Origin: Candidatus Omnitrophica bacterium UBA6215
Lineage (GTDB): Bacteria > Omnitrophota > Gorgyraeia > Pluralincolimonadales > Pluralincolimonadaceae
DNA: 64,000 bases
Reading direction: 5' to 3'
NCBI GenBank assembly: GCA_002421665.1
Contig: DISH01000007.1
Coordinates: 145,278-209,277 of the forward strand
This document shows positions 2,751 through 63,286 of the stretch, piece after piece. A program made the translations under genes and the position numbers. The notes beneath the pieces are model-generated. The model had not been told where the DNA came from. It saw nothing but the letters and a program-made list of their open reading frames with translations, and did no database searches. Numbering within the stretch: the stretch's first letter is position 1; every line of letters starts with the position of its first letter.

Positions 2751-4649
2751 TTATACCTTTAGTTTGTTCCTCGTGATCGCGTACTCCGAAAGAGCTATCA
2801 GCGGGAACACGGAGGAATACAGTTCATAGCGCAGGTAGCATACCCTGGGAAAACCTGTCCCGGTAAAATTCGTCTCTTCCCAGTTGCCTGTAATGTCTTG
2901 GTTCGTTATAAGATACTCTATGCCTCTTTCGACCGCGCTGCTGTTGTAGTCGCCGGCAGCATAGAGAACCATCAAAGCCCATGCCGTCTGCGAAGCGGTA
3001 GAGACACCCTTGCCCTTCTTGAACGGGTCCGCGTAACTAAGGGGCGATTCGCCCCATCCGCCATCGTCGTTCTGCGCGGACCTTATCCAGTTAGCGGCAG
3101 TATCGAGCTCTTTCTTGAAACCCCCGGCTCCCGAGAAACTCAGTCCCCTGCAGGCAAGGAAAGTCCCGTAGATATAATTAACGCCCCACCTGCCGTACCA
3201 GGTGCCGTCGGGTATCTTTTCTTTCTTGAGAAACCTGACCGCTTCTTTTAAGGGTGATTTACGGGGGTCATAACCGAGGCGGCCGAGCAATTCGCACGTG
3301 CGTCCGGTTATGTCCGCGCAAGTCGGGTCAAGCATGGCATTATGGTCCGCGAAAGGCACCTTGTTAAGGAAACGTTTGTTGTTGTCCTTGTCGTATGAAC
3401 TGAAACCTCCGTCGCGCGACTGCATCTTGAGCAGCCAATCGAGGCCGCGTTCGAATTCAGCCTTCTTCCTGCCCTCTTCGCCGCCCATGTCTACATACAT
3501 TAGAGCCATGAGTACCTGCGCACTGTCGTCTATATCAGGATAAAATTCATTGCGGAACTCGAAATACCACCCTCCGGGCTTAGCGTCCCCGGCTTTCTTT
3601 ATCCAGTCTCCGACGTCATTGGCCTGTTTTGAGACCAGCCAGCGGCCGGCATTCCTCATGCTCTCATGGTCCTTCGGGAAACCCGAAATACCCAGTGCGT
3701 AAACGGCCAAGGCTGTATCCCACACAGGCGAAACGCATGGCTGGACCTCAGACTTGTGGCCGGAATTTACTACAAGCTTTAATATCTCGTCGATATTCGA
3801 CTTCATGAGCGGGTGGTCATTATTGTAACCCAGGCAGCTTAAGGCCATTACGGAATTGACCATGGCCGGATATATGGCGCAAAGGCCGTCGCTTTTATCA
3901 AGCCTGGCGACCATCCATTTTTCCGCGGCACGGACAGCCTTGCCCTTCAACAGGCAAATGCGAAGCTTATATACGGTCTTGATCAATATATCGGCAAGAA
4001 GAAAAAAATTCTTCCAACTTATACCTATATCGGGTTTTATCCCGCAATCCCTCATCCGCCGGCCGTTCTTATATAACTCGTCGACGTTAAAGTTCTTTTC
4101 GATCTTACGGACCGGTTTTTTGGCCCATAGAATGGAAAGCGGCACAATGATGGTCCTAGTCCACGCGCTGAAATCATATATATTGACGGGAGACCAATCA
4201 GGTAAAAACATTATCTCCGGCGGTATGGCGGGACAAGCGTCCCAACTGCCGAGCCCGAACATCGCCAGATACAACCTGGTATAGCTGTTGGATTTTTCGA
4301 TCCCGCCAAGTCCAAGGATTATCTGGCGGTCCCTTGCCATGGAATTGCTGCGCAGATCGAAGCCCTTCAACTTAAGCGCCAGGTAGCATTTTATCGTGGT
4401 GTTAAGCTCGGGCGGCCCGCCCGGATATATGGACCATCCCCCGTCTTCAAGCCTTCTTTCCAGGATGAAGTTTATGAATTTCTGCTCGAGCTCCTCGTTC
4501 CTTATACCCAGGAAACGCAGGATACACAGCGTATCCGACTCAAGGCCAAGGTCCATATGAAAAACGGACTTGAAATAACCTTCCGGGGATTGCCTGCCAA
4601 GCAGGTATTCTCTTGCCCTGTTTATGGCGCCTGATAATCTTTCGCTCAT
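2751..4649 (-). CDS. shc: squalene-hopene cyclase
   Basis: 632 aa; DIDDSA (DxDD) catalytic motif; multiple QW repeats (QANDVGDW, QNDDGGWG, QSRDGGF). Confidence 0.9.
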   Translation of the reverse strand: MSERLSGAINRAREYLLGRQSPEGYFKSVFHMDLGLESDTLCILRFLGIRNEELEQKFINFILERRLEDGGWSIYPGGPPELNTTIKCYLALKLKGFDLRSNSMARDRQIILGLGGIEKSNSYTRLYLAMFGLGSWDACPAIPPEIMFLPDWSPVNIYDFSAWTRTIIVPLSILWAKKPVRKIEKNFNVDELYKNGRRMRDCGIKPDIGISWKNFFLLADILIKTVYKLRICLLKGKAVRAAEKWMVARLDKSDGLCAIYPAMVNSVMALSCLGYNNDHPLMKSNIDEILKLVVNSGHKSEVQPCVSPVWDTALAVYALGISGFPKDHESMRNAGRWLVSKQANDVGDWIKKAGDAKPGGWYFEFRNEFYPDIDDSAQVLMALMYVDMGGEEGRKKAEFERGLDWLLKMQSRDGGFSSYDKDNNKRFLNKVPFADHNAMLDPTCADITGRTCELLGRLGYDPRKSPLKEAVRFLKKEKIPDGTWYGRWGVNYIYGTFLACRGLSFSGAGGFKKELDTAANWIRSAQNDDGGWGESPLSYADPFKKGKGVSTASQTAWALMVLYAAGDYNSSAVERGIEYLITNQDITGNWEETNFTGTGFPRVCYLRYELYSSVFPLIALSEYAITRNKLKV

Positions 4650-5495: not shown

Positions 5496-6494
5496 TTAGG
5501 CAGACTTGCGTTTTATGAGTTTGGGCTCGAAATAACGCAAAAGGGACTTCTTATGGGGAGAATACGCGGAATTTATCAGGTCCTGTCCGGCGGCATAGGC
5601 TATATCGGCCACCGGCTGTTCTACGGTCGTAATAGGCGGATCGAAAAGCTCGCATATAGGTATATTGTCGAAACCTACTACGGCTACGTCTTCCGGTACT
5701 TTTTTTCCGGAAGACTTCACGGCCCTTATAGCGCCTATCGCCATTCTGTCGTTCGCAGCGAACACGGCATCGGGCGGATCGGCCAGCCCAAGCATCTTCT
5801 TTGTCGCGATTTCCGCATCCTCGTATTTAAAATATCCGCGCTCCACATAATCCGGTTTGAACTGGATGCCCGCTTCGGCCAAGGCCTGCTTGTATCCCTT
5901 TAATCTCTCTTCTGCGTCGAACCAGTTCTCGTGTCCGTGCAGGAAGGCTATCCTTTTCCTGCCGGAATCTATAAGGTGCTTTGTCGCTATATAGCCGCCG
6001 CGTTTGTTGTCACAGCCGAAGGAATCGGCCCTGTCGGAATATGCAAAAAGCAGCGCTATGGGAACCTTGCTCCTTTTAAGTTCCTCGAGTTTTTCCGTAT
6101 CGTCTTTGGATATGGCAACAAGTATAAGTCCGTCGACCAGCCTGCTCTTGTACATCCGCAGGCATTGTTCGCCGTCGAATTTGTTCTGGGTAAATATCAT
6201 TATCTGGTAATTGTTCTCGTTGGCAACCTTGGCAACTCCCTTTATGGTATCTATGGCAAAAAAATCCGTATTAAGGAAGGTATCCCTGGGGAATATCAGA
6301 CCTATGACATTTATCTTTTTTGAGGCGAGGCTGGCTGCATGGATATTCGGGAAATATTTTTCCCTATCGAGATGCCGGAGTATGCGCTCCCTGGTCCGAC
6401 CGGCAACATTGTTGTCGTTCTTCAGGACCCTCGATATGGTGCGGCGAGATATATTAAGTTTTTTTGCAAGATCTTCAAGCGTTTTTGCGCTCAT
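5496..6494 (-). CDS. LacI family transcriptional regulator
   Basis: N-terminal HTH LNISRRTISRVLKN, C-terminal periplasmic-binding-protein-like sugar-binding fold; 4-bp overlap with upstream hydrolase gene. Confidence 0.9.
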   Translation of the reverse strand: MSAKTLEDLAKKLNISRRTISRVLKNDNNVAGRTRERILRHLDREKYFPNIHAASLASKKINVIGLIFPRDTFLNTDFFAIDTIKGVAKVANENNYQIMIFTQNKFDGEQCLRMYKSRLVDGLILVAISKDDTEKLEELKRSKVPIALLFAYSDRADSFGCDNKRGGYIATKHLIDSGRKRIAFLHGHENWFDAEERLKGYKQALAEAGIQFKPDYVERGYFKYEDAEIATKKMLGLADPPDAVFAANDRMAIGAIRAVKSSGKKVPEDVAVVGFDNIPICELFDPPITTVEQPVADIAYAAGQDLINSAYSPHKKSLLRYFEPKLIKRKSA

Positions 6495-9400
6495 TCATCA
6501 CCTTTTCCCGATACCAATATAGTAGCAGGCAGTTTGTTAAATGTAAACTCTTTACCTGAGCGCGGATCGTTAAAAACGAACCCGCCGGGAGGGGACGCTT
6601 TTCCGCTGACTTCGAGCTTAAGACCCTTGCTATACGGTTTCAAAGAAAAACTCACGTCTCCATAATATGTCGGCAGCCCCTGCGCTTTTATCTCCTTTCC
6701 GGATACCGCCCACTCTTCAGGTATGCCTGCACCGATGACAAGTTTATCCCCGACCTCATAGACGAACATGTTCCTGACCGCGCATATATACTCGGCGCCT
6801 ATCCAGGTATGCGGCATGTCGCCTATGTACTGGGGATGGCGGTATCCGCTGAAGACAACCTCGGCCCAGTGGTTCCATTCGCGCGGCCGCTTGACTGTCT
6901 GGAAATATTCAAGCATCCTGAAGGCCTGCTCCCTTTTACCCATGAGTATTAGCGCGGATATTGAGCGCACCTCATATGGGGTAAATCCGCCTTTCCAGCC
7001 TTCGCCGGAACGGGGATCGAGCGATTCCCTTAAATACTTATCGAAGGTATTATCCAACTGGGGCCGAGGCAGGTATTCAAGCTGGCTGCACGGGAATACC
7101 GCGATAGCAGTCGAAGTGGCATCAAAATCCCCTTTATCGGCGCAGCCCGGGATAAAATCTATTCCCTTGACATTCATCGCCAGGTCGATGGATTCGTATA
7201 CGGACTTCCTGAAAGACGTCTTCTCGGAGTCTATCCACTTCGCCGCATCTTCCTTGCCGAGGATACGGGCTATTGAACCGGCATCCTCCCATCCTTTAAG
7301 GGCCCAGAAATCATCCCAATAGCTGTGCATGGCCGGGAAATAGCCTTCGTGGCTGTTCGACTCCGGAAGGATCCCGCAAAACACTTTAATATTGTCAGCG
7401 CCCTTGCAATAATAATCCGTAAGCCTTTGCTTCCTGAGCTCGACGAGGTATTCGAGCGCCTTCATTATGTTCGGCCATTTATCCTCAAGGAATTCCCTGT
7501 CGTTGGTAAACCTGTAATAATCATAGATAGAGAATATGAACTCTCCTTGGCTGTCATATTCTTTCCAATCCCTGCACCAGCCGGGCATGCCCCCTTCTTC
7601 AAGTATGAAAGGCACCATCCCGTTGCCATACTGGCGCTGCGCTATCCAGTCGAGGAACTCCTTAACGTCGTCCCTGTAACCCATCCTTAGCAGGGCCGCG
7701 GAGATCAGGGCTCCGTCGCGCATCCAGGCCTTCTTGTAATTGCGCGAGCCCGGTTGGAGCTTAAGGATATCCTTATTGATAAGGATATATCCCAGGTTGG
7801 ACTTCATCGCGTTTATTATCTCTTCGTCCGGGACTTCTATGTTGACCGCGTCAAGCTTTGCCTGCCAATATTTTTTCTGCTGTTCGAGCAACCCGTTGAA
7901 ATAACCGCGAGCCTGGGAAGCTGCCGCAGGAAGATTCCCGACGTTGCCGTGCAAAGGTACGGCAAAAAAGAGGTCCGCACCCTTCCCCGCCGGAAGGCTC
8001 AAGGAATATTCCAAGGCTCCGGAAGCATACTTATCCGGGTCATCGACCGCCCTGCAAGAAGGAACGCCGCCCTTTTCGATATAATCCGTGATATCATTGT
8101 CCCTGTACCTGACAACCCCGAAATTATCCGGTTTAGAAACAGGTATCAGCGCCGGCACTCCGTTGATCCTTACAACGGCAGGAGCGCCGCCCTCGAAAGA
8201 AACGGACCTTATCTCGGAAAGGCCCCCATGCTGCCAGGGGGGATTTACCTGGAAAGGTCTTACGGTAAGAAAAAATTTTCCGGAAAACTTCTCTTGCGTC
8301 CTGTTCTCTATCGTATACCAAATATATGCGGCGGAACTGCCTCGGTCCCCTGACGCGAACAACCTTTGCGTAAAGACCAGGCCGTTACGCTCCCATTCCA
8401 CCTTGGGCAAAGGCAGGTAGTCCTTTTCGAGAGATTGCGTTACCTTCGAATTGCATGAGGTTATGAGTTCTGAACCGTCATAAATATAAGGCATGAACGA
8501 GTAACTGCCAGAATACGGCTCTATCGTGCCGTCCTCGCACAGGAGGCATTCCTTGTCATCCCCGTCTATGCCCACGACGGTCCAATACGCCTGCTGCCTG
8601 TTCAGCCATCTGGGGTAATAGCCAGCAGGGGTCTCCTCGGCAAGCAACTCGAAATGTTTTTGCGGGGTCGCAGATTCATCCGGGCCTTTAAGCATCAGTT
8701 CTTTCAGGGAATATCCGCTGCCGGTATTGCTCTGGCGGCATTGCACTTTTATCGACCTGGCCCTTGCAGGATCCAGGTATATCAGGTCCTTGCTGCCGTT
8801 CCCTTTTTCGTTCGAAAACACATTTTTCCATGAATTGCCGTCTTCGGATATCAGGATATCGTAGGACTTGGCATAATTGAGGCCCCAATTCAACTGTATC
8901 CCGCCTATATCCTTCTGTTTTTTCAGGTCAACCGTTATCCAGGCCTCACCGCACGAATCGTTGAGCCATTCGGTCCCGCGGTCGCCGTCAAAGGCGTTAG
9001 ACGGATCGCTTATGTCCTGGGTACAAGAAGCCGTTACGACCGGTTCCTCATCCGCGCCTTTGACCAGGACCTCAAATACCGAGTATCCCCAGAACGTCCC
9101 GCGCTCTTTCATGAATATCCTTACGTATCTGGCAGGGGCCTTCCTGAAATAGACCTCATCCGTCCCGCCGTCGCTGTCGGTTATCTCGTAGACCGTCTTC
9201 CACTCGGAATTATCGGATGATATCTGGACTTCATATGATTTGCCGTAGGCGGCTTCCCACTTTATGGTGATACCGCATATCTCGATGGTTTGCCCGAGGT
9301 CTAAAAGCAGCCACTGAGGATCCGAGAATTGACTGCTCCACCTGCTCTGGTAATTGCCGTCGACGACATTTGCCGGGCGATAGAGATCGCTTTCGCTGGA

Positions 9401-9508
9401 AGATGCACAAACCTGCACGGCGGAAGGCCGGGCCTGGCCGCTGCAAACGAAAATATAGGACAGGGAGATAATGAATACGGCAAGAACGGTCCTGAGGTTC
9501 TGGTTCAT
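6491..9508 (-). CDS. secreted protein: 2x F5/8 type C (discoidin) domains + six-hairpin glycoside hydrolase domain (GH15/COG3387-like, WMRDGA motif)
   Basis: 1005 aa; signal peptide; two discoidin-like repeats (RWSSQFSDPQWLLLDLG; GTEWLNDSCGEAWITVDLK); C-terminal ~650 aa with YKKAWMRDGA. Confidence 0.5.
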   Translation of the reverse strand: MNQNLRTVLAVFIISLSYIFVCSGQARPSAVQVCASSSESDLYRPANVVDGNYQSRWSSQFSDPQWLLLDLGQTIEICGITIKWEAAYGKSYEVQISSDNSEWKTVYEITDSDGGTDEVYFRKAPARYVRIFMKERGTFWGYSVFEVLVKGADEEPVVTASCTQDISDPSNAFDGDRGTEWLNDSCGEAWITVDLKKQKDIGGIQLNWGLNYAKSYDILISEDGNSWKNVFSNEKGNGSKDLIYLDPARARSIKVQCRQSNTGSGYSLKELMLKGPDESATPQKHFELLAEETPAGYYPRWLNRQQAYWTVVGIDGDDKECLLCEDGTIEPYSGSYSFMPYIYDGSELITSCNSKVTQSLEKDYLPLPKVEWERNGLVFTQRLFASGDRGSSAAYIWYTIENRTQEKFSGKFFLTVRPFQVNPPWQHGGLSEIRSVSFEGGAPAVVRINGVPALIPVSKPDNFGVVRYRDNDITDYIEKGGVPSCRAVDDPDKYASGALEYSLSLPAGKGADLFFAVPLHGNVGNLPAAASQARGYFNGLLEQQKKYWQAKLDAVNIEVPDEEIINAMKSNLGYILINKDILKLQPGSRNYKKAWMRDGALISAALLRMGYRDDVKEFLDWIAQRQYGNGMVPFILEEGGMPGWCRDWKEYDSQGEFIFSIYDYYRFTNDREFLEDKWPNIMKALEYLVELRKQRLTDYYCKGADNIKVFCGILPESNSHEGYFPAMHSYWDDFWALKGWEDAGSIARILGKEDAAKWIDSEKTSFRKSVYESIDLAMNVKGIDFIPGCADKGDFDATSTAIAVFPCSQLEYLPRPQLDNTFDKYLRESLDPRSGEGWKGGFTPYEVRSISALILMGKREQAFRMLEYFQTVKRPREWNHWAEVVFSGYRHPQYIGDMPHTWIGAEYICAVRNMFVYEVGDKLVIGAGIPEEWAVSGKEIKAQGLPTYYGDVSFSLKPYSKGLKLEVSGKASPPGGFVFNDPRSGKEFTFNKLPATILVSGKGDE

Positions 9509-9536
9509 GGATTAGCGGCCTCCTCTTTTAAAACTC

Positions 9537-9575
9537 GCGGACAATTATATATCTTTTTGTCCGCCGGCGCAATAA
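9537..9575 (-). promoter_or_regulatory. candidate promoter/operator of hydrolase-lacI operon: inverted repeat GCGGACAA-N12-TTGTCCGC enclosing TATAAT; TTGCGC -35 at 17 bp
   Basis: Seen directly; perfect 8-bp arms at 9537..9544 and 9557..9564; minus-sense TATAAT at 9549..9544; AGAGGAGG RBS before ATG at 9508. Confidence 0.35.
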
Positions 9576-9714
9576 TATTACCCTCGGTCTTCCGCGCACG
9601 GGGGCTAAGGTTAGCGCGATCGGCCGCCTGGAAGAACAGGACCGGCCCCGCATTGATCGTCAATTGTGGGGGATGAGATTTTTGCAGGACCGGCCCCGTG
9701 AACCTCGTTGTAAG

Positions 9715-10356
9715 TTACTTCTTCTTTTTTGAAACGCCGAGCAAGCCTATCAAGCCGGAGCCCAAAAGAAGCAGGCTCGCCGGTTCCGGTACGGGTTGAG
9801 TATCAGCGACTACATCATCAAAGTAGACCGAACCGCTCGATCCGGTACCGTTGTTCCTGAGCAAAAGCGAGAGGCTCGCCTTCGCCGTCCCGGCAGGTGC
9901 CACCTGCGCGAGGCAAAGGTCTTCCCACCCGCTGGTTGAGGTATTGCGCGTCACGGTATATGCCTGACCGATCTGCGCCTCGCCGGAATCCACGAATTTA
10001 ACCTCAAGGACCGCTTCTGCATTTACCAAAGCTGTAGGAATATTGACCGGAGCCGTCGCATAGAGCGTCTGCCCTTCGGTCACCGAAGCCCACTGGCCCC
10101 AACCACCCCAGCCGGAGCCGGTTATGGCCTCCTTGCCGGAATAGGAACCGCTCTTTACTATTGAGCTTTCCCTGGTACCTGTGATGTCAGGATCGCTGAA
10201 CATATGCCACCAGTCTCCGGGAACCTGTTCGCCGCTGCTACCCCATGGGCCCCAGGTCTCAAAACCGGGATTCGTAAGGGAATTAGAGGCGACTGCCGCG
10301 GAAGACTGCAAAAGTACCGTTCCGATGAACAATCCCATCAAGATGATCTTCTTCAT
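9715..10356 (-). CDS. PEP-CTERM-anchored secreted protein with CBM4_9-like carbohydrate-binding module
   Basis: 213 aa; signal peptide; NSLTNPGFE start of CBM4_9-like fold; C-terminal VPEPASLLLLGSGLIGLLGVSKKKK = PEP-CTERM motif + TM + basic tail (exosortase substrate). Confidence 0.8.
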   Translation of the reverse strand: MKKIILMGLFIGTVLLQSSAAVASNSLTNPGFETWGPWGSSGEQVPGDWWHMFSDPDITGTRESSIVKSGSYSGKEAITGSGWGGWGQWASVTEGQTLYATAPVNIPTALVNAEAVLEVKFVDSGEAQIGQAYTVTRNTSTSGWEDLCLAQVAPAGTAKASLSLLLRNNGTGSSGSVYFDDVVADTQPVPEPASLLLLGSGLIGLLGVSKKKK

Positions 10357-10403
10357 TTATTCACCTCCTTTCGATTTGGTTTTTCTCCCCGGTTAAATTT
10401 TAT

Positions 10404-10417
10404 TGCCCACGTGGGCA
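10404..10417. promoter_or_regulatory. perfect 14-bp palindrome TGCCCACGTGGGCA upstream of PEP-CTERM gene
   Basis: Seen directly; ~50 bp upstream of start codon at 10356; one of three related CACGTG-centred palindromes. Confidence 0.4.
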
Positions 10418-10501
10418 TATATCTTCAAAAAAATATCCCTCAATGCCTACGCTACTGGCCCCGCCCGCTCGCCATAAGGCGAAAAGGCAGGGCCAACTGA
10501 C

Positions 10502-11092
10502 CTATTTAACTAAGGCTATATCATCGATGTAAATAGTACCTTGTTTCTTAGCCGAACAGGTCATATCGTCGAAAACGATCACGAACTCGGTGATCGAGCT
10601 GAGGTCCGTCAGTCCCGAGAAAGAGCCGAGCGGTATTACCGCTTCCTGCCAATCCTTCGATATGTTATCGTAAGTATACCTGCCTACCTCCCCCTTCGAG
10701 TTCTTGAGCTCAAGCTTTATCTTCTGCGAGAATCCGGCAACTCCGTCTCCCTTGACCCAGAAAGACAGCTTGTCATATTTTGTTGCATCCTGGTTAGGCA
10801 GTTTCATCCAGAAACCGTTATACGCGGGATTGGGCGAGTCTACATCATAATCCAGCTGGACCGAAAAACCGTTACCTCCATGCTTAACATCAGAGGTGAA
10901 GTTGGTCTTGCATCCCTGGGTCGTATCGTTGGGATCCTTGTCCCATGCCCCGAAATCCCCTCCCAGGTTGTTGGGTTTGTCACCGGAATCGAAATTCGCT
11001 ATGACAAGAGTGGCCGCGTAACAAGTACCAGAAAGAACCAATACTGCGATCAAAGCGAAAAAGAGACATGATATTTTATTCATCGAAGTCAT
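10502..11092 (-). CDS. secreted beta-sandwich carbohydrate-binding-module-like protein (CIA30/CBM11-like)
   Basis: 196 aa; signal peptide; paralogous (~50% identity by eye) to C-terminal module of 11293..12528 protein (KPNNLGGD..W..DPND.TQGC...YIDDI). Confidence 0.5.
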   Translation of the reverse strand: MTSMNKISCLFFALIAVLVLSGTCYAATLVIANFDSGDKPNNLGGDFGAWDKDPNDTTQGCKTNFTSDVKHGGNGFSVQLDYDVDSPNPAYNGFWMKLPNQDATKYDKLSFWVKGDGVAGFSQKIKLELKNSKGEVGRYTYDNISKDWQEAVIPLGSFSGLTDLSSITEFVIVFDDMTCSAKKQGTIYIDDIALVK

Positions 11093-11171
11093 AAACTCCT
11101 TTATGTTTTAATGCTGCACTTTCCCCTTGGCTTACCCAATAGCCCTTCACTCATCCACCCCCTTTCAATGT

Positions 11172-11199
11172 TTGTAAATGCCCACGAGGGCATTTACAA
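11172..11199. promoter_or_regulatory. 28-bp perfect palindrome TTGTAAATGCCC-ACGA-GGGCATTTACAA in leader of 10502..11092 gene
   Basis: Seen directly; 12-bp arms, 4-bp centre; lies just downstream of a TTGACA-N17-(TGG)TAAGTT promoter-like sequence on the minus strand. Confidence 0.4.
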
Positions 11200-11264
11200 G
11201 TAAAACTTACCATATAGAGCGGTGTTTGTCAAGAAAACTATATTGCTAATTTTATGGAAATATT

Positions 11265-11278
11265 TGCCCACGTGAGCA
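11265..11278. promoter_or_regulatory. near-palindrome TGCCCACGTGAGCA (third copy of motif)
   Basis: Seen directly; 13/14 match to site at 10404. Confidence 0.3.
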
Positions 11279-11292
11279 ATCCAGGACAAAAA

Positions 11293-12528
11293 TTAATCGC
11301 CAAAACCTATATCGTCTATATATACCCTTCCCTGTTTCCTGTCGGCGTTGACCTTGTCATCGAAACGGATGACGAACTCCTTGACGGAGGAAAAATCATT
11401 AAGGCCGGAAAAAGACTTCAGCGGTATAGCAAACCGCTTCCACTCCCCTGTTATCCCGGATAATGTATATTGGCCCTGTTCACCTTTTGAATTCTTTATC
11501 TCCAGCTTCATGTTCTTTGAGAAGCCGAGCGAGCCATCGCCCTTTATCCATAATATAAGGCTCTTGTAGCGCGAGAGGTCCTGGTCCGGGAAAGCCATCC
11601 AATACCCGTCAAGCGCCTCATTTGGGGAATCCACATCATAATTCAGCTCGAGCATGTAGCCCTTGCCGTCGTGTCCGCCGGTGCTGAAATTCATGTTGCA
11701 TCCCTGCGTCTTGTCATTAGGGTCCCTGTTCCATATCCCCATGTCCCCGCCGAGATTGTTGGGCTTGGAACCCGAGTTGTAATCGGCTACGAGCAATTGG
11801 GGCCCGTGCGCTGATCCAGATGCCGGCGAGGACGGCGGCACGGCAACCGTTGTGACCACGTTCCTCGGATAAGACCTGCCAAGCATATAATCCTTAAGCG
11901 CCGCTTTCTTTTCTATCTCTTCGACTGAAGCGTCGTCAACGAAAAATTTCCCGCTACCGTTCGCGGAATTGACATACTGGACCACGAAATTACAGTTATC
12001 CGCATCCTGGGGGGCTATCGCGGAAAGCGAGATAAGCGTCCATCTCAGGTACGGAAGATTGGCGCCGAACTTCTTGCCGTAATCCCTGCTTATCTCTACC
12101 GGGACATCCTTGCCGTCTTTATCCTTGGTCATCTTCCTCCATTCTATGCTGATCTGGCCGTATGAATCTCCGCTTACGGGGTCTTCGCGGGAATTCAGCG
12201 CATAACACCTGAATACGTATTTGTTACCCGGGATGACTTTTCTATAGGTATAAAAAACGCCGGTAGAATCGCCTTGCTTGGGGCATAACAAATATATCGA
12301 TTGCTGCCCTTTCCTCCTTTCGGTGGGACAAAGTCCGTTAAACGAGGAGTTCCAGCTTCCCCATTCGCGGGGGTCTTCATCCCTGAAACCCGGCCTGTTC
12401 TCGAAGCTGGCGTTGGGAAGGATGTTCCTGCCTATCATAACCGCGTTGCCGTCGGCCGGTAAAAAGATGGCCGCAATGCAGGCAATTATCAACGCTCTCA
12501 ACATTCTATTACCGCCTTTCTCCCCCAC
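11293..12528 (-). CDS. secreted two-module protein (CBM4_9-like N-module + CIA30/CBM11-like C-module)
   Basis: 411 aa; signal peptide; N-module paralogous to 12536..13090 protein, C-module paralogous to 10502..11092 protein. Confidence 0.55.
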   Translation of the reverse strand: MGEKGGNRMLRALIIACIAAIFLPADGNAVMIGRNILPNASFENRPGFRDEDPREWGSWNSSFNGLCPTERRKGQQSIYLLCPKQGDSTGVFYTYRKVIPGNKYVFRCYALNSREDPVSGDSYGQISIEWRKMTKDKDGKDVPVEISRDYGKKFGANLPYLRWTLISLSAIAPQDADNCNFVVQYVNSANGSGKFFVDDASVEEIEKKAALKDYMLGRSYPRNVVTTVAVPPSSPASGSAHGPQLLVADYNSGSKPNNLGGDMGIWNRDPNDKTQGCNMNFSTGGHDGKGYMLELNYDVDSPNEALDGYWMAFPDQDLSRYKSLILWIKGDGSLGFSKNMKLEIKNSKGEQGQYTLSGITGEWKRFAIPLKSFSGLNDFSSVKEFVIRFDDKVNADRKQGRVYIDDIGFGD

Positions 12529-12535
12529 TCCGGAA

Positions 12536-13090
12536 TTACTTTACCTCTACCGTGGCATCATCCGCGTAATACGCACCAGAACCGTCCCTGCGGAAGAACT
12601 GTATCACAAAATTGCACGCGTCCGCTTCGGCCGGGGCCGTGGCCGTCATCTCCTGCCTGGTCCAGTCCGTTTTAGAGGTCTCGGGCCCCCAGATAATACC
12701 CCAGGTACGTTCGGTCTCCCTTTCGTTCTTCAGCCATTCTATACTGAGCTGGCCGTAAGCATCCCCCGATATCGGATCCTTGGATGAATTCAAAACAAAA
12801 CAGGAAAATACGTAGGTCTTCCCTGGGACAACGTTGCGATAACGGTATAATATTCCGCTGTGCGAACCCCTGCTCGGCGCCGAACTTATATATACCGACT
12901 GGTCCCCGGTCCTCCCGGATTCAGAAGTAAGGCCGTTGTATTCGGAATTCCATGACCACCATCCCGCCGGGTTCTCGCCGCTGAAGCCTTTAAGTTCCTC
13001 GAAACCGGAATTCGGAACTATATTGCCTTCCGCATACGCGATCGAATGTAAAGACAATATAACGACGGCCGCAGTTAACAGGTGCCTCAT
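12536..13090 (-). CDS. secreted CBM4_9-like protein
   Basis: 184 aa; signal peptide; NIVPNSGFEEL...; paralog of N-module of downstream gene; 4-bp overlap with sensor gene upstream. Confidence 0.55.
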   Translation of the reverse strand: MRHLLTAAVVILSLHSIAYAEGNIVPNSGFEELKGFSGENPAGWWSWNSEYNGLTSESGRTGDQSVYISSAPSRGSHSGILYRYRNVVPGKTYVFSCFVLNSSKDPISGDAYGQLSIEWLKNERETERTWGIIWGPETSKTDWTRQEMTATAPAEADACNFVIQFFRRDGSGAYYADDATVEVK

Positions 13091-51990: not shown

Positions 51991-52953
51991 CTAATATTCA
52001 TCGGGAGAATAGGCTTCATTGTCATCCGGCATATGCTTAACGTCAGGATTTAATGGAGGTCTATACAAAAATTTGTCTACCTCGAGATCCCTTGAGCCAT
52101 CGGGATTAATGTAGTAGTCAATATAACCTCTGAAAGCGATCTTGCCGTATTTGCCATCCGGGGTTTTGAAGTAATAATAAATATCTCCCTGTTCCTTATC
52201 CGCATTATCGGCAGGACAGATGGTCTGGACATAGCCGTCTTCAGGGGCCTCTGGCATCAAATTAAAATTATTATATAATTCATTTAGGGCGCTCTCGCGT
52301 TGAGGTAGACCGGGACAATATACAAAACCACCGGGTTCTTTCATGGTATAGATATGTTGATTATTTTCGTTTATATCAAGTACTATATCAACGGGAACAT
52401 CCTTGTCAACAGGATAATACCATCTTTTGGCAAATGACCAACCGCATTGTTTGCCGAAGGATTGTTTTTCATCTAAATCTGGAATATAGGCATTTTCAGT
52501 ATATTCAAGCTTGGAAGAAACACCCTTAGGTATTAGATACAAGATTGTATCTCTGCTGGTTATCTCCGTAGCAACCCTAACAGGAAAACCATCCTCTTCC
52601 TCGATAATCCTTTTACTCCTAGGGAGTTTGACAGATATCCTATGGTAACCTTCTTTTTCGGCCGTTACAGTTATATATGATGCTTTTCCACTCCAGCTAA
52701 AATGTCCATTTGAAACTTTAAATTCATAAGATTCTTCTCTAGATCCTACGCCATCAACGGAAGCAGCATCGGGAAAAGTAATCTCTGCGGTTATTTTTAT
52801 CAACACTTCTTCATTGAACAAATTTCCGTTTTTATCAAATACTTTGCCAGAAATATCAACCGGAAATAAATTTTCCTTGGTCACCTCTTCCGCCAAGGCC
52901 ACTGAACTAAAACATATTAAACTTAATATGATAGTAAATAATAGCCTTTTCAT
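51991..52953 (-). CDS. secreted hypothetical protein (candidate immunity/partner of upstream lipase-like protein)
   Basis: 320 aa; signal peptide; 4-bp overlap with upstream gene; AT-richer than genome. Confidence 0.5.
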   Translation of the reverse strand: MKRLLFTIILSLICFSSVALAEEVTKENLFPVDISGKVFDKNGNLFNEEVLIKITAEITFPDAASVDGVGSREESYEFKVSNGHFSWSGKASYITVTAEKEGYHRISVKLPRSKRIIEEEDGFPVRVATEITSRDTILYLIPKGVSSKLEYTENAYIPDLDEKQSFGKQCGWSFAKRWYYPVDKDVPVDIVLDINENNQHIYTMKEPGGFVYCPGLPQRESALNELYNNFNLMPEAPEDGYVQTICPADNADKEQGDIYYYFKTPDGKYGKIAFRGYIDYYINPDGSRDLEVDKFLYRPPLNPDVKHMPDDNEAYSPDEY

Positions 52954-55900
52954 TTTTTCTCCTTATAATAATACTTTTCCGGATCTTTAAGAAACATAAA
53001 ATATTCCTGCACATCATAATAATATTCATTCATCATACTGCTATGGCTTCTAATACCGTACGGTCGATAATCTTTATCTACGTTCATGATTTTACCGGGA
53101 GGATAAAAAGTATCGTTAAATAACTTTGTGTATTTAGACCTTGCGGCATTTGAACCCAAAGCTTGATATCCATATTCAAGCATACACTGTTTATAATCCC
53201 ATTCGCTCTTAACAAGCTTATAAACGAGGTCTAATGGGGTAGGAAATGAACGTACTACATCATTTGCTTCATAAGCATCTGTTAGAGCCCTATCAACTGT
53301 TGAAAAAGTATTATATATATTTTTCTTTACTACAGATATGCTTGGACCATACATATTGCCAAAAAACCCATAATATCTGTTGTTCCTTTGATTGAATCGT
53401 AAATTTTGCGGATTACCAGTAAATACTTCACCAGGTATTGCAGCTTCAGCTAAAATAACATTATCTATTATCTCTCCCTCGCTATTAGAAAGCAACCTTA
53501 AAGCATAACACATTATATTATTACCTAAAGAGTGTGCTCCAACATTAATTTTTGAATCCGGGAATTGTGCTATTGTATCTGTAATTATATCTGCAAAAAC
53601 TTGTCCGGTTTGATAAGATACCACCCAGTCTGCATTAAAATCAATGGTTGACATTAAATCATTCGGCCACTTATGAGCTTTCCAAACAACTCCAATAAAA
53701 CCTCCCCTGAATCCGCTCCTATAAAGCCTCTTATAAATAGTATTGAGTGACCGAACCGATACATCATATGTGTTATTATACCCATGGGTCCAAATCAGTA
53801 TGACATCAGGATTATCAGGATATATATTCCCATGACCAACTTCAATTTCTTTATTTCTAAAACGAGGGATGTCATCGAATTGAGTGGTAGTCGGTCCGGT
53901 CCTTACATTGTAAAGCCTATACATTTCACTAATATTTTTCAACGTAATAATAGCTTCGTCCAACACAATCTTTCTCGACGTGTTGCCGTTAATAAGCTCT
54001 ACCTCGAGGATAATCTTGAGATCGCCTTCTTCTACCCCTTCGAATGTGCCGTAGAATTTGCCGTCGGAGTCAAACCATGAGGAATCAAGAAGTTCACCTT
54101 TTTTCTTGGTGTCAGAGTCGGAAGGGAGGAGGAATTTCTCTTTTTCGATAAATTGTTTCTTTGAATAACGTAAATCTGTCAAAAAAGCATCGTTTACCCT
54201 CTTAAATACCCTAATCTTGCCTTTTCCCTCAGTCTTAAGATAGAACTTCACATTCTGGTTATTAGCCCATTCCTTTATGTTGGCAACGGTTATATTAATC
54301 GGCATGAAGTCTTCAAGATCGCGAATACCGTTGATTCTATCATCATAAGTATCGCACTCTCCGCTTGCTAGATTAGAATTATTGTCGTCAGGATGGACTT
54401 TTGACTCGTCATAATCGTCATCATCATTCACCCAGAATACGCAGCCGGGGGAAATCATCTCGCAGGCGTTATCATCACCGCCGAGGAAGCCGTCGTTGTT
54501 GGAGTCAATTAAAATATCGCCCGTAAGGCCTTCGTGAAATTCAGCCGCAAAATGCTTATCAATATACCCTCTATAGATCCTGAAACCCTCGGCATAATAA
54601 GGCGTATCAACACTGATGCCGAAATCGGTATCGGGTTTTACATTATCCAATACCACATAAGATGTCCTCGGCTCAGGCCCAAGCTGCGCCAGCTCCATTC
54701 CGTTGACCTTATACCCGCTTATCGATGATATCGTATATCGGGGAAAGAACGGGAGATCCTCTAAAAACGAGCAATTCTTAAGCACAACAACAAATGGTTT
54801 ATTGTCTACCGGAGGGGAATGCAGCGTAATAGATGTCTTTATAGAGCCATGCCCTCTATAAGTTTCTAAACCGCTGTAATAATACAACTCCGGATAATTC
54901 TCAGCGAAATAATACGGTATGCTATCATCGTTATAATAATACAGGCCCGGTTTATTAAGGGGGATATCATAACGATACCCCTTTTCCGGGTAAGGCCAAC
55001 TCCCAAACGGAGGTTCTCCGAACAGGTCTTTATTATATGACTGGATGGTCTGGTAAGGAGTGGACATCTGAAAACCGTCTTCAAGATCATATACATCGGT
55101 TCCAAAAATATGCGTCATCACGAACATCTGATAGTAATAATATTCCACCCTGTCCTCATACGCCTTGCCGTCTTCCGGTTTTATGACGACTTTAAGCTCG
55201 TTCTTGCCGGAGTGATTTTCGGGGTTGACTTTCATGATAATGTATTCGGCGGAATCGGAATTGATCTTTTTCCTGCGCGCCTCACCGGGAGATACGAGCG
55301 TCGGGCCCTCGAACGTACCGTCGGCCTTATCAAGGGTGCAAGACTGGCCGTTGACCGTGATAGAGGATATCCCGGCGTCCTTGTTGAACCTGCCGCCGAT
55401 TTTAAGCTTATTCTCGGTAATGACCTGATCGAAATACGGGGAAGTGAACACGACGTCTGCGGAACTCGCCGTGTACTGCGAAGCATTGCTCTGGTACTGC
55501 GGAGGGGTATAACTTGTTGTGACGGCGGTAAGCACCTTGCGCCTTGGCCCCGGTTCGGAATATCCCTCGGCGGTCAGGCCCGAATTAAAAGCAACGGTCT
55601 CGACTAAGCTGCCGCCGCCTAAATTGAGCTTCTTCTTCTCCGACCGGACGGTATACGATACCAGCCTTCTCTTTCCGTTTATATCGGTCATATCGATCAA
55701 GAAGGTATTGACCCCGTCCTTGAGCCGTATATCTTTTATCTCAAAACCGTTATCGACTATCTCGACCGGCTCGCCTTTGAACTTGACCAGCTTGGCCTGG
55801 AAGTTGTCTTTCAGCCGGCCCTTGAGATCGAAATGGTCGTCATAGATCACACTCGACTGGGACGGAGAAATAGACTCGAATCCCAATGGAAGGCTCAAGT

Positions 55901-59666: not shown

Positions 59667-60617
59667 TTACAGGTACGGGCACTGCCCTCCGCTCTTGAGG
59701 ATGAGGCAATCGCGGGCACAGGCTTCCGTCTTGACAAAAACCTCGCTGTCGGGCACTGCCGTCATTATATCGTTCTCCACCTTCCTGCAGATGTCATCCG
59801 CCTTCGCGAACGGCATCTCCAAAGGAAGCGTTATCTTCAGGTTGATGAACTTCCTGTGTCCCGAACTGCGCGTCCTTATGTCGCTGAACCCGCAGAAGAG
59901 CCCCGCGTTCTGCGCCAAGCTCACCACTACATCCATCTTGCTCGGCTCCTCTATAGAGGCATCGAGCAGGTTAAAGAACGCTTTCTTGGCAATACCGAAA
60001 GACGGTATCGCGATGACAATGCTTACCAGCATCGCGACCCCGGGGTCAAGATAGAGCGCTATGCGGTCCTTCCCGGCGGACGTCAGCATCATAGACGCTA
60101 CGAACGCGCACGCGATGGCAAAGGATATCACTCCCTCAAGCAGGTAGTGGATACCCTCCGCGCGCACTGCCGGGGAACGGCTCTTCCTGCCCATAATTAA
60201 TATATAGTATGAACCCCCGAAATTCAATGTGAAACTCAGGATACTTGAGGCCAGGCCGAGCCACGGGTTGGTGATGTGTTCGGGGTGCACCAGGGACTTT
60301 ACTGACTGCGATATCATCGCGAACGCGATGCCGATAAGAACTATCCCCTCTATTCCCTCGCAGACATTCTCTATCTTACCGTAACCGTAGTTGTGCATAA
60401 TGTCCGCGGGACGGTGGGCGAGTTTCAGCGAATAATAGAGTATTATAGAAACGCTGAGGCCGGTAACCGTTATCGCAAAATCCGTCGCTATGGCAAGGGA
60501 GCGTACTATCGCGAAAGCCGTTCCTTTGAAGATGAAAAGCGCGATGTTGCACCAAAGGCTGACGAGCGCGGCCCTCATTACGTATTCCTGCCTGTTGATA
60601 CGGCTGACTTTTGCCAT
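59667..60617 (-). CDS. cation diffusion facilitator family transporter
   Basis: 316 aa; 6 TM; HxxxD-type metal sites, C-terminal cytoplasmic domain. Confidence 0.85.
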   Translation of the reverse strand: MAKVSRINRQEYVMRAALVSLWCNIALFIFKGTAFAIVRSLAIATDFAITVTGLSVSIILYYSLKLAHRPADIMHNYGYGKIENVCEGIEGIVLIGIAFAMISQSVKSLVHPEHITNPWLGLASSILSFTLNFGGSYYILIMGRKSRSPAVRAEGIHYLLEGVISFAIACAFVASMMLTSAGKDRIALYLDPGVAMLVSIVIAIPSFGIAKKAFFNLLDASIEEPSKMDVVVSLAQNAGLFCGFSDIRTRSSGHRKFINLKITLPLEMPFAKADDICRKVENDIMTAVPDSEVFVKTEACARDCLILKSGGQCPYL

Positions 60618-60628
60618 CTATGCCTTTA

Positions 60629-60886
60629 TTATTCTTTCGCTTTTTTATCCAGGTCCTTGAGTATCTCTTTTGCATCCGCGGCATCGCCGCGGGAAACGAG
60701 TATCTTCACCGGCCCGACAACCGGATTTAAGCCGCCGAGGTTGCCCCAGGCGATCAAGTCCTGCGCGTTCTCATCCTCGACAAAAAACTCTATTCCCGCG
60801 CTCGCCAAAAGAGATTTCGCCGTCATGATATCCGCGCGTTCGAACGAGCTGAAAACTATTACCGGGGCGTCTTTCATATTTGACAC
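60629..60886 (-). CDS. DUF2007 family small protein
   Basis: 85 aa; pattern consistent with DUF2007. Confidence 0.45.
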   Translation of the reverse strand: MSNMKDAPVIVFSSFERADIMTAKSLLASAGIEFFVEDENAQDLIAWGNLGGLNPVVGPVKILVSRGDAADAKEILKDLDKKAKE

Positions 60887-60995
60887 TCCTCTTCATCACT
60901 TAATATTTTAACACTTTTAAACAATTGCGGATATCTTTTAGCTTCAAATGTATGAATTTAATAAGAAACTCGCTGTTTAAATATGCCGCGGTGGA

Positions 60996-62372
60996 TTAGG
61001 AGTTGCATTTCTTGAACTTACTTAATAAATGTCCAGCTTCAGTGCGGTTAATAAAGAATGTATCGTCGAGAATATTGGTTTTTAAGAATAAGCGCATTGT
61101 ATAATCATCACTCATTTTGGCCCAGTCATCAATCGCCCTGCCTAATAATCCGTCCTGCTTGAGATCGCTCCTGATATTATAGTTATCGAGAACTACGGCT
61201 CCCATAATGTCTTTCTTAGATATTTCTTCCTTCCGCGCGAACCTACAATCTACGGCTTTCAACAACCCAAGTTTTACCTTCTGCTCTAGAACATTTTTAT
61301 AGGTCGACATGAAATCGTCGTATTTGTCATATACTATATCTATATATCTTTTAGTCTGTCCGGAAAATACACTTTCTATTTCTTTATTGTTTTTATTTTT
61401 TAGTTCGATTACCGCAAAAGTAAATATGTTATCCTTTATCCTTTTAAGTCCTAACAAATCGATCCTACAATCCTTCTTGCCCGGATAAACAACCTGCCTG
61501 TCTATAACTAAAATACCATTTTTACCTATGGCGCGGTTATCGATAAAATGATTTATCTCGCTTACGCCTTCGGAAATATTTCCCCTTTTATGGGCTACGA
61601 TTTTAGCGATTACCTGCACCATAATATCATTGAAACACTTGGAATCATTTATATCATCAATACTAATCTGCCATTTTCTAGGCCCATAAGCCTTTACCAT
61701 GCTGTTTGTCGTAGCTAACGATCCTCTTGGGCTGAACTCGTTAGAGGCAATAAGGCAATAACCCTTCCCTTTTCTTCTTACCTCTACCGTATGACCCAGG
61801 AAATATAAATCGAGGAAATTGTCCCTTATTTCAACCATAAATGATTTTCGGTTCTTTCGCTCAAACTCTAATATATATCGTAATCTTCCTTTAATTAGAT
61901 CACTAATAAACTCGTCGTCCAGGCCTCGAAAAACACGTTTATCCTTACAGTCTTTATCAGGTTTTGGATTGGCAATTAGGCACGCACCGGGTAATGTCCT
62001 TAACAACCTTTTACCAGTAGAATAGCGCTCCATTTCTTCAAGCTTAAGAGGAATATTTAATTTTTTAAGATTATTGAAGCCATAATAATATTTCCCTGTT
62101 TCCGATTCGCATCCGGGCAGACGATATCTATGCGGATTTTTGTCCGTAACCTCTATCAAATTTGCCATATGGGATATTTCTACCTTACCCGCCGGTCTAG
62201 CTGTCAATTTAAAATACACCTTTGCGATATCTTCATTTATTGCTTTTTTTATAGGTGAGTCTGTCTTAAAATACAACTTGGTTTTTCCTGTCCTAAAGTA
62301 ATTAAACGCAGCTTCAATCCATTTTTGATTAACCAATGCTAGCAACGCGGCTCTACCGCTATTCTCTTTCAT
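60996..62372 (-). CDS. uncharacterised protein with C-terminal PD-(D/E)xK nuclease-like motif (candidate defense nuclease, possibly Shedu/DUF4263-like)
   Basis: 458 aa; AT-rich; ...GKKDCRIDLLGLKR...FAVIELKNK...Q..Y matches D-(n)-ExK; 12 bp downstream of mrr. Confidence 0.45.
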   Translation of the reverse strand: MKENSGRAALLALVNQKWIEAAFNYFRTGKTKLYFKTDSPIKKAINEDIAKVYFKLTARPAGKVEISHMANLIEVTDKNPHRYRLPGCESETGKYYYGFNNLKKLNIPLKLEEMERYSTGKRLLRTLPGACLIANPKPDKDCKDKRVFRGLDDEFISDLIKGRLRYILEFERKNRKSFMVEIRDNFLDLYFLGHTVEVRRKGKGYCLIASNEFSPRGSLATTNSMVKAYGPRKWQISIDDINDSKCFNDIMVQVIAKIVAHKRGNISEGVSEINHFIDNRAIGKNGILVIDRQVVYPGKKDCRIDLLGLKRIKDNIFTFAVIELKNKNNKEIESVFSGQTKRYIDIVYDKYDDFMSTYKNVLEQKVKLGLLKAVDCRFARKEEISKKDIMGAVVLDNYNIRSDLKQDGLLGRAIDDWAKMSDDYTMRLFLKTNILDDTFFINRTEAGHLLSKFKKCNS

Positions 62373-62383
62373 ATATATCCTTA

Positions 62384-63283
62384 TTACTCGTTAAAATAAT
62401 CAGAATCTATCTTCTTAACTTCGAAAGTTGCCGAAGAAAACACTCCGACATTATTTTCAATCATAAGTTGCGCGAGCATCTCGCCATCAATAAGCACAAT
62501 CTTGTTATCAATATTTTTTACGAAATCCAACGCTTCTCTGGAAAAACTTGAAGTTGTAATAAAAACGCCTTTCTTCGCATGCTTGCCAATTAAGGCACCG
62601 GCAAACCTTTGAATCTCCGGACGACCGACTTGAGCATCCCAACGTTTTGCTTGTATATAAATACAATCTAACCCCAAACGATCCTGATTTATAATCCCAT
62701 CTATCCCTTCATCACCTCTTCTGCAGAGAGCCTTCCCAGCATCTTTTCTTGAGCCTCCATACCCCATGCCTAAAAGCACTTCTACCACTAATCTTTCAAA
62801 AAATGCCCAGGAACAACGCATGATCTGAGTTAATAATTCCTGAGCTAACTCATCTTGAATCTTCCTGTATCCAGCTTCAAATAAATCATCCGGAGTACTT
62901 TGCATCTCCCCTTTAATAACGGGAGTCTCAGTTTTAACATCTTCTTTCTTTAACCAAGATCTAAACCTGGGAATCTTCAAAAGAAATTCAATGTTAATCT
63001 CTTTCGTGGTTTTCAGGATCCTCATTCCTTCATCGCTAATTGACCAATATCCCCACCGCGGAGAATCAATTAATCCGGCTTTATTTAAGTAGTTTCTCGC
63101 CCAAGCAACGCGATTGCCAAAAACAGGGTTTCTACCGCTGGGCTGCATTTTTGCCAACTCTTCTTCAGTTAGCTTAAACTGCTTCGCTAAAATATCTATA
63201 ACCTCGCTTTTATGGTGTTCTTTTTTATCCGATAAAACTTTTAATAACGGCAACATAATAGTTTCAAAATCAGGAATAGCCAT
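62384..63283 (-). CDS. mrr: Mrr-family type IV (modification-dependent) restriction endonuclease
   Basis: 299 aa; N-terminal Mrr_N winged helix (MAIPDFETIMLPLL); C-terminal Mrr_cat GDEGIDGI...IYIQAKRW...GVFITTS closely parallels E. coli Mrr. Confidence 0.9.
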   Translation of the reverse strand: MAIPDFETIMLPLLKVLSDKKEHHKSEVIDILAKQFKLTEEELAKMQPSGRNPVFGNRVAWARNYLNKAGLIDSPRWGYWSISDEGMRILKTTKEINIEFLLKIPRFRSWLKKEDVKTETPVIKGEMQSTPDDLFEAGYRKIQDELAQELLTQIMRCSWAFFERLVVEVLLGMGYGGSRKDAGKALCRRGDEGIDGIINQDRLGLDCIYIQAKRWDAQVGRPEIQRFAGALIGKHAKKGVFITTSSFSREALDFVKNIDNKIVLIDGEMLAQLMIENNVGVFSSATFEVKKIDSDYFNE

Positions 63284-63286
63284 TTG

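Follow-up and report, generated by a model that had tools for sequence, protein, structure and literature searches.

Gene neighbourhood and recurrent palindromes

We analysed a stretch of 64,000 nucleotides (nt) from Candidatus Omnitrophica bacterium UBA6215 (contig DISH01000007.1, positions 145,278 to 209,277; the window), in which three related palindromes, numbered here as sites 1 to 3, precede genes of secreted proteins. The Omnitrophota are an uncultivated, partly host-dependent and little-studied phylum, in which almost no experimental genetics exists. All genes of the motif region run on the minus strand (Table 1). In the sense direction, the gene of a 411-amino-acid (aa) CBM11-like protein is followed by site 3, a predicted promoter, site 2, the gene of a secreted 196-aa CBM11-domain protein, a hairpin, site 1 and the gene of a PEP-CTERM protein. 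The same string of genes ends, 4–5 kb downstream of the sites and on the same strand, with the gene of a LacI-family transcription factor, which forms an operon with a 1005-aa glycosidase-like gene (the stop of the latter overlaps the LacI start by 4 nt). The CBM11 genes, two paralogues, share 54% identity, and an exact-protein look-up of the CBM11 gene returned one 998-bp contig only. The PEP-CTERM protein has an NPGFE/CBM4_9-like N-terminal domain and is a member of the NPGFE/CBM4_9-like PEP-CTERM family.

Table 1. Positions of genes, candidate operators and the predicted promoter in the motif region of the window
Feature	Position	Strand	Description
PAS-GGDEF-HD-GYP protein gene	15843-13087	minus	
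CBM4_9 protein gene	13090-12536	minus	
411-aa CBM11-like protein gene	12528-11293	minus	paralogue of the 196-aa gene
Site 3, auxiliary upstream operator candidate	11264..11279	minus	sense sequence TTGCTCACGTGGGCAA
Predicted sigma-70-type CBM11 promoter	11204..11232	minus	TTGACA 11232-11227, 17-nt spacer ending TGG, TAAGTT 11209-11204
Site 2, primary operator candidate	11172..11199	minus	28-bp perfect palindrome, sense sequence TTGTAAATGCCCTCGTGGGCATTTACAA
196-aa CBM11-domain protein gene, secreted	10502..11092	minus	proposed target; domain match, paralogue comparison
Site 1, operator candidate	10404..10417	minus	perfect TGCCCACGTGGGCA, centre 54.5 nt before PEP-CTERM ATG
213-aa PEP-CTERM protein gene, secreted	9715..10356	minus	proposed target
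Degenerate half-palindrome, possible weak site	9558..9571	minus	TGCGCCGGCGGACA, overlaps -35 region of glycosidase-LacI operon promoter
1005-aa protein gene	6491..9508	minus	two F5/8-type-C domains and an (alpha/alpha)6-type glycosidase-like region
LacI-family transcription factor gene, 332 aa	5496..6494	minus	proposed cognate repressor; Pfam, orthologues, alignments

A previous inspection of the letters alone (the sequence-only reading) had pointed to a perfect 14-mer at 10404-10417, a 28-bp perfect palindrome at 11172-11199 and a third site at 11265-11278, and all of them are present. Site 1 is TGCCCACGTGGGCA with 0 mismatches, site 2 consists of 12-nt arms around a 4-nt centre, and its core at 11179-11192 (TGCCCACGAGGGCA) has one mismatch to TGCCCACGTGGGCA, as has site 3 (TGCCCACGTGAGCA). 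With at most one mismatch allowed, three matches to TGCCCACGTGGGCA are observed while 0.01 are expected from dinucleotide shuffles of the 64-kb window, and none of 100 shuffles reached three matches. The motif had not been noticed elsewhere in the window, and indeed no further site exists in the 64 kb even at two mismatches. Scored with a matrix of 17.4 bits built from 17 sites, the three sites reach about 22 bits each and the next-best position of the window reaches 9.3 bits.

All three sites are intergenic as proposed, and sites 2 and 3 occupy one shared intergenic region in front of the 196-aa CBM11 gene. The further proposal that the genes behind the sites are paralogues fails for site 1, since BLAST detects no paralogy between the PEP-CTERM gene and the CBM11 genes. 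Nor is CACGTG the conserved centre that it was thought to be: the bases beside the central CG vary, and TGCYC..CG..GRGCA is what is kept. An E-box reading of CACGTG in the eukaryotic style was rejected because the A/T bases flanking the CG are not conserved. Neither copies inside coding regions nor a dispersed repeat, which the sequence-only reading had named as outcomes that would speak against it, were found in the window and the fetched loci described below.

Resemblance to LacI-family operators

The core TGCYC-N-CG-N-GRGCA is an even palindrome of 14 bp in which each half-site contributes 7 bp and a CpG forms the centre. All three window sites have this central CG, as do 16 of the 17 matrix sites. 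Operators of the LacI/GalR family are typically inverted repeats of even length (14–22 bp) with a CpG in the middle (PMC4052901). Among 1303 LacI-family factors, 1173 recognise an even palindrome with central CG, and the base contacts lie in the 7 bp nearest to the operator centre (Ravcheev et al. 2014, PMC4052901). Since a CpG-centred palindrome of 14 bp is the signature of LacI/GalR operators, the LacI gene at the end of the gene string was tested as the cognate factor. Its product contains a LacI helix-turn-helix (HTH) domain (PF00356, 33.5 bits with a cut-off of 27) and periplasmic-binding domains of the Peripla_BP_1/3/4 type (PF13377, 116.8 bits; PF00532, 91.7 bits). In the numbering of E. 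coli LacI, its recognition helix reads S16-R17-R18-T19-I20-S21-R22 and its hinge carries Leu56. From these features together with the comparisons given below, the three palindromes are very probably DNA operators of this LacI-family repressor. The shared operator of a dimeric transcription factor, the first of the two possibilities named in the sequence-only reading, is strongly supported by the anatomy of the sites, their co-occurrence with orthologues of the regulator, their promoter positions and residue-base co-variation.

More than 75% of LacI-family sites lie between -140 and -30 from start codons (PMC4052901). In the window, the site centres are at -54.5, -93.5 and -179.5, and two of the three fall inside this zone. 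Site 2 has its core on the sense strand as TGCCCTCGTGGGCA (11192-11179). The palindrome begins 4 nt and the core 11 nt after the predicted -10 hexamer, so that the core spans roughly +6 to +19. Its centre is near +12, and 93.5 nt separate it from the start codon of the 196-aa CBM11 gene. By this position, site 2 overlaps the predicted transcription start of the gene, and it is conserved in three of the related loci (L004, L005 and L001).

Site 3 begins 14 nt past the stop codon of the 411-aa gene and lies upstream of the -35 box, with 31 nt between TTGCTCACGTGGGCAA and TTGACA. Its centre precedes the predicted start by about 75 nt, and the centre of site 2 is 86 bp away. The counterpart in L002 (TGCGCACGTGGGCA) has an equal position relative to the promoter. 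Site 3 as a terminator of the 411-aa gene was rejected for want of a U-tract. The sense strand continues with AAUAUUUCC after site 3 and with AAUAAAAU after site 1, neither of which contains a U-tract, and a scan for intrinsic terminators flags site 1 only on the plus strand, antisense to all genes.

The CBM11 promoter was recognised by cross-genome conservation. Its form, TTGACA-N14-TGG-TAnnnT, recurs in L002 (about 9010-9040), L006, L090 (about 17600), L092 (about 11010), L093 (about 11048) and L094 (about 11830), and it shows as a conserved block in an alignment of related loci. A generic promoter scan missed it, as no more than three of the six bases of its -10 box fit. Promoters of this form have a TGG that resembles an extended -10 element, and weak -10 hexamers (TAAGTT, TAAATT, TAACCT, TAATCT).

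For site 1, the search for a promoter gave poor candidates only (TTGAAG-19-TAAAAT), which are not conserved in L004. Equivalents of the site lie 43–56 nt before PEP-CTERM orthologues in L002, L006, L090, L092, L093 and L094. Site 1 may thus either be a roadblock or internal operator or overlap a weak promoter. The promoter of the glycosidase-LacI operon has its -10 box, TATAAT, at 9549-9544, and the half-palindrome in its -35 region is homologous to TGCGCCGGCGGGCA in L004 and TGCGCTCATGGGCA in L088. Possibly this element is a weak site of autoregulation, or one that has decayed.

In a mechanism modelled on PurR, GalR and CcpA, a dimer of the repressor would place one HTH on each TGCCC half-site and insert Leu56 of its hinge helix into the central CpG. 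On site 2, the dimer would cover the CBM11 transcription start and block initiation. A second dimer could bind 86 bp upstream at site 3, for cooperative binding or looping, and site 1 would serve to block read-through or a weak local promoter ahead of the PEP-CTERM gene. A sugar or oligosaccharide in the periplasmic-binding-protein-like domain would release the repressor, which would couple substrate availability to secreted carbohydrate-binding proteins and, in relatives, also to F5/8-type-C glycosidases and the regulator itself. The data show the anatomy and positions of the sites, their co-occurrence with the regulator across genomes and the residue-base co-variation; that the regulator binds them, that it represses and does not activate, what kind of effector it has and any looping are inferred.

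Conservation of the motif across genomes

Loci of regulator orthologues were fetched at 94% to 42% regulator identity, and 164 loci (labelled with L) were fetched in all. A scan of genome contigs with the LacI alignment matched generic LacI patterns; among the matches listed, at least two are true orthologues (L008 and L009), and the other 78 loci, which contain unrelated LacI paralogues, were reused as negative control. A scan of metagenome contigs with the PEP-CTERM alignment keyed on the generic PEP-CTERM peptide and found mostly unrelated genes, which were reused as second control.

The pattern TGCYCNCGNGRGCA was found in 11 of the 164 loci, and all 11 contain the regulator orthologue. It has 14 exact matches in 250 kb of the window and the orthologue loci, all of which are intergenic, while none was found in 909 kb around unrelated LacI paralogues or in 274 kb around generic PEP-CTERM genes. 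Likewise, the motif is absent from the rest of the flanks of related loci (about 190 kb). In eight other genomes with orthologues or close paralogues of the regulator (29–80% identity), it occurs only between genes. More than half of the compiled sites (10 of 19) start 1–11 nt after a predicted -10 hexamer, and five of these sit on the promoter of the regulator or its operon (two in L009, and one each in L095, L092 and L093). Autoregulation was reported for three quarters of local LacI-family regulators (PMC4052901).

With growing distance the motif remains as a conserved island amid diverging flanks. All three sites are kept in L004 and L005 (94% regulator identity). L002 (80%) contains the upstream site TGCGCACGTGGGCA and, ahead of the PEP-CTERM gene, TTCTGCCCTCGGGGGCAGAA, which is also kept in L006. 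In L092 (48%), TGCCCACGTGGGCA lies 1 nt after the -10 box of a GH3-LacI operon, a neighbouring promoter has TGCTCACGAGAGCA at its start site, and ATGTTTCTGCTCTCGTGAGCAGAAACAT precedes a PEP-CTERM gene. TGCTC..GAGCA sites are found in L093 (47%) and L094 (44%), on glycosidase or glycosidase-LacI promoters and before PEP-CTERM genes. In L009 (44%), which is labelled Elusimicrobiota, the regulator's own promoter has a perfect TGCCCACGTGGGCA 6 nt past its -10 box. In L095 (43%), where the regulator gene is part of a LacI-glycosidase operon, TGCCCACGCGGGCA starts 2 nt past the -10 box of that operon. The gene of the 1005-aa F5/8-type-C glycosidase is likely a member of the regulon in relatives.

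Residue-base co-variation

In the recognition code of the LacI family, arginine at protein position AA-20 goes with G at operator position NT-6, the hinge leucine goes with the central CG, and AA-15/16 go with NT-5/NT-4, where NT-4 depends chiefly on AA-16 (Camas et al. 2010, PMC2978694). In our numbering, AA-20 is R22, AA-15/16 are residues 17/18, and the G of T-G-C-C-C-A-C|G is NT-6. R22 and L56 are at least 90% conserved in the aligned orthologues and paralogues, and their partners in the sites, G at NT-6 and the central CG, hardly vary. Within the half-site, variation is confined to NT-4.

The orthologous group splits into a clade with R17-R18 and a clade with R17-F18. R18 proteins occur with TGCCC..GGGCA (the window, L002, L006, L009 and L095), and F18 proteins with TGCTC..GAGCA (L092, L093, L094 and the second LacI of L090). 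L009 contains a W18 paralogue with a TGCAC site, TGCACACGGGTGCA, on its own promoter, while at a distance of 4.7 kb the promoter of the R17-R18 protein carries TGCCCACGTGGGCA. The prediction, set beforehand, that the R17-R18 protein P0040 would carry TGCCC..GGGCA came true. For P0044 (R17-F18), for which a paired prediction had been made, the locus was without any site and contained only a CIRCE element before hrcA.

Two side observations concern these loci. In L009, the palindromes of the two paralogues lie at their own start sites (1216-1239 and 5956-5969), with A or C at NT-4 matching W or R, and each of the two LacI genes heads a cluster of F5/8-type-C genes. In L096, at about 4320-4350, a canonical CIRCE element (TTAGCACTC-N9-GAGTGCTAA) precedes hrcA-grpE-dnaK-dnaJ beside an R17-F18-type LacI orthologue without an operator of the present type.

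In Table S1 of the code, lysine at AA-16 pairs with C at NT-4, and methionine or isoleucine with T (PMC2978694). The pairs R-C and F-T found here follow this chemical trend. However, Arg, Phe and Trp at AA-16 are outside the classes of that table, and the helix here continues as T-I/V-S/A-R. The dyads RR, RF and RW with CC, CT and CA at NT-5/NT-4 would for this reason be additions to the code.

Alternative explanations

Several observations weigh against the assignment of the sites to the neighbouring LacI protein. No site lies within 10 kb at three orthologue loci (the first LacI of L090, L091 and L096). The glycosidase-LacI promoter of the window has only the degenerate site without central CG, so autoregulation in this genome is doubtful, and L092 contains one TGCCC-type site despite its F18 regulator. 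The same three points would fit operators of another DNA-binding protein that is encoded elsewhere, which we nevertheless consider quite improbable. No gene other than the LacI orthologue is shared by all loci with the motif, the neighbours being wholly different in L009, L092 and L095; in four or five genomes the motif lies on the promoter of the LacI gene itself; and both its architecture and its co-variation with protein residues are specific to the LacI family. L090 has TGCAC/GAGCA hybrids together with an F18 protein, and with this and the L092 exception the residue-base rule is a tendency, not absolute. In addition, the promoters are predicted from sequence throughout, and site 1 and its equivalents in PEP-CTERM leaders are without a recognisable promoter, showing a fixed distance to the start codon instead. 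Finally, many sites are palindromic well past 7 bp per half-site with arms that differ in sequence, which the operator model leaves unexplained.

This extended symmetry would be at home in RNA. The sequence-only reading had allowed for conserved leader hairpins, and the palindromes could act mainly as such in the 5' leaders of secreted-protein mRNAs, by stabilising the 5' end, marking a processing site or occluding translation signals, with the LacI gene incidental. If transcribed, they do fold (site 2, -18.5 kcal/mol with z = -7.4; L092 site c, -18.7; L002, -14.8). At 12 of 19 sites the palindrome runs 2–7 bp past the 14-mer, with such different arms as TTGTAAA/TTTACAA, ATTATG/CATAAT and ATGTTTC/GAAACAT; the sites in PEP-CTERM leaders keep their 43–56 nt from the start codon, and on the sense strand the single mismatch of site 3 can still pair, as G.U. 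However, by the predicted promoters the -35 box lies downstream of site 3, and likewise of the counterpart in L002, and in L092a, L090c, L095 and L093a the 14-mer starts 1–2 nt after the -10 hexamer, which leaves the left arm outside the RNA. The left extension of L009b is also upstream of the start.

The pattern of conservation points the same way. T, G, C and C of the stem and CG of the "loop" are invariant down to 29–44% regulator identity, where a structural stem would drift, and the sole varying stem pair (NT-4/NT+4) changes in step with a protein residue. The upstream site of L002 contains a G.G clash, in L004 an A.C pair interrupts the long stem of site 2, and Rfam gave no match at E ≤ 1 in 9300-11500 on either strand. 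To our knowledge, NCGN loops are outside the known stable tetraloop classes, which also counts against a hairpin. Taken as the principal function, hairpin formation is thus very unlikely and is not needed to explain the sites, while the unexplained symmetry leaves room for a secondary role, so the long palindromes may act as hairpins in addition to being operators.

That the motif recurs by chance, is left over from a duplication or belongs to a dispersed repeat, of the repetitive extragenic palindrome or miniature inverted-repeat transposable element (REP/MITE) type, is hardly credible: the CBM11 genes are tandem paralogues whose upstream sequence could have been co-copied, but the flanks of the three window sites are unrelated to each other, the expected number of matches is far below the three found in 64 kb, no further copies exist in the window or the related flanks, and across genomes the motif is conserved where the flanks diverge.

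Comparison with known systems

As probable operators of a LacI-family repressor, the sites share with known LacI/GalR operators (the Ravcheev catalogue; PurR, CcpA cre and RbsR) the even palindrome with central CG, about 7 informative bp per half-site, and a position on promoters or within 140 nt before start codons. They also share a dimeric reader with an HTH_LacI domain and a periplasmic-binding fold that is encoded nearby (here predicted), a local carbohydrate-related regulon and frequent autoregulation. In contrast, the half-site TGCYC is GC-rich, whereas most catalogued LacI-family motifs are AT-rich and of the TGnAAnCG type. The targets here are secreted CBM proteins, PEP-CTERM proteins and F5/8-type-C glycosidases instead of transporters and catabolic enzymes, and the Omnitrophota are apparently outside the coverage of the catalogue.

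Like the operator pairs of GalR (OE/OI) and LacI (O1/O3), sites 2 and 3 bracket one promoter, one near the start and the other about 75–86 bp upstream. Looping here would be conjectural, and the spacing of the sites differs between the window (86 bp) and L002 (135 bp). Unlike LacI, the 332-aa protein ends where dimers of the PurR and GalR type end; from its length and alignment, it appears to be without the C-terminal tetramerisation helix of LacI.

Other elements of the region

An inverted repeat, GC-rich and imperfect, separates the CBM11 gene from the PEP-CTERM gene at 10456-10495. Its 18-nt arms are 78% complementary, no U-tract follows on the sense strand, and L004 retains the repeat in altered form. 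As it may act as a weak terminator, or else in processing or stability, transcription could plausibly continue into the PEP-CTERM gene.

A conserved stem-loop follows the PEP-CTERM gene immediately on its 3' side, at 9636-9700 on the minus strand. In the window, the sense strand of its GC-rich stem of 16–17 bp forms four G.U pairs, and three pairs show compensatory changes across genomes, while the loop sequence AAAAUCUCAUCCCCCA is invariant. Counterparts exist in L004 (3886-3958), L088 (84-156), L002 (9822-9894), L006 (9760-9832), L003 and L007. The position suggests a terminator, a role that leaves the conservation of the loop unexplained, and Rfam gave no match for the stem-loop.

Other CG-centred palindromes, ATAAACACGTGTCGAT, GATAAACACGTTTCGAT and TTCACACGTTTGCA, precede PEP-CTERM/CBM4_9-like genes in L098 (about 215-235 and 305-325) and L094 (about 12935-12950 and 11870-11885). 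As these palindromes differ from the one described here, they suggest that further LacI paralogues control paralogous PEP-CTERM genes in Omnitrophota. The G+C content of the window falls to 0.365 at 52001-54000 and to 0.41–0.44 at 60001-64000, and is about 0.52 in the rest.

Implications

The proposed mechanism is of a textbook type and is only modestly new, the novelty lying in the uncultivated phylum, the PEP-CTERM targets and the uncatalogued R/F/W residues. A literature search found no paper that links LacI-type sugar sensing to PEP-CTERM proteins in Omnitrophota.

A broader proposal, which is possible but rather doubtful, joins these threads. An Omnitrophota-centred subfamily would extend the recognition code, with Arg, Phe and Trp at AA-16 reading C, T and A at NT-4, and a single base pair would insulate paralogues within one genome. 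The long palindromes would double as operator and stabilising 5' RNA hairpin in a sugar-sensing control of exosortase-dependent PEP-CTERM surface lectins.

For the Omnitrophota, the analysis yields a testable cis-regulatory prediction. It says which protein regulates, which 14 bp serve as operator, what form the promoter has and which few genes make up the regulon, namely those of secreted carbohydrate-binding proteins, PEP-CTERM proteins and glycosidases. For the LacI family, the correspondence of R, F and W to C, T and A is a natural experiment in the specificity divergence of duplicated regulators, and it could yield orthogonal repressor-operator pairs.

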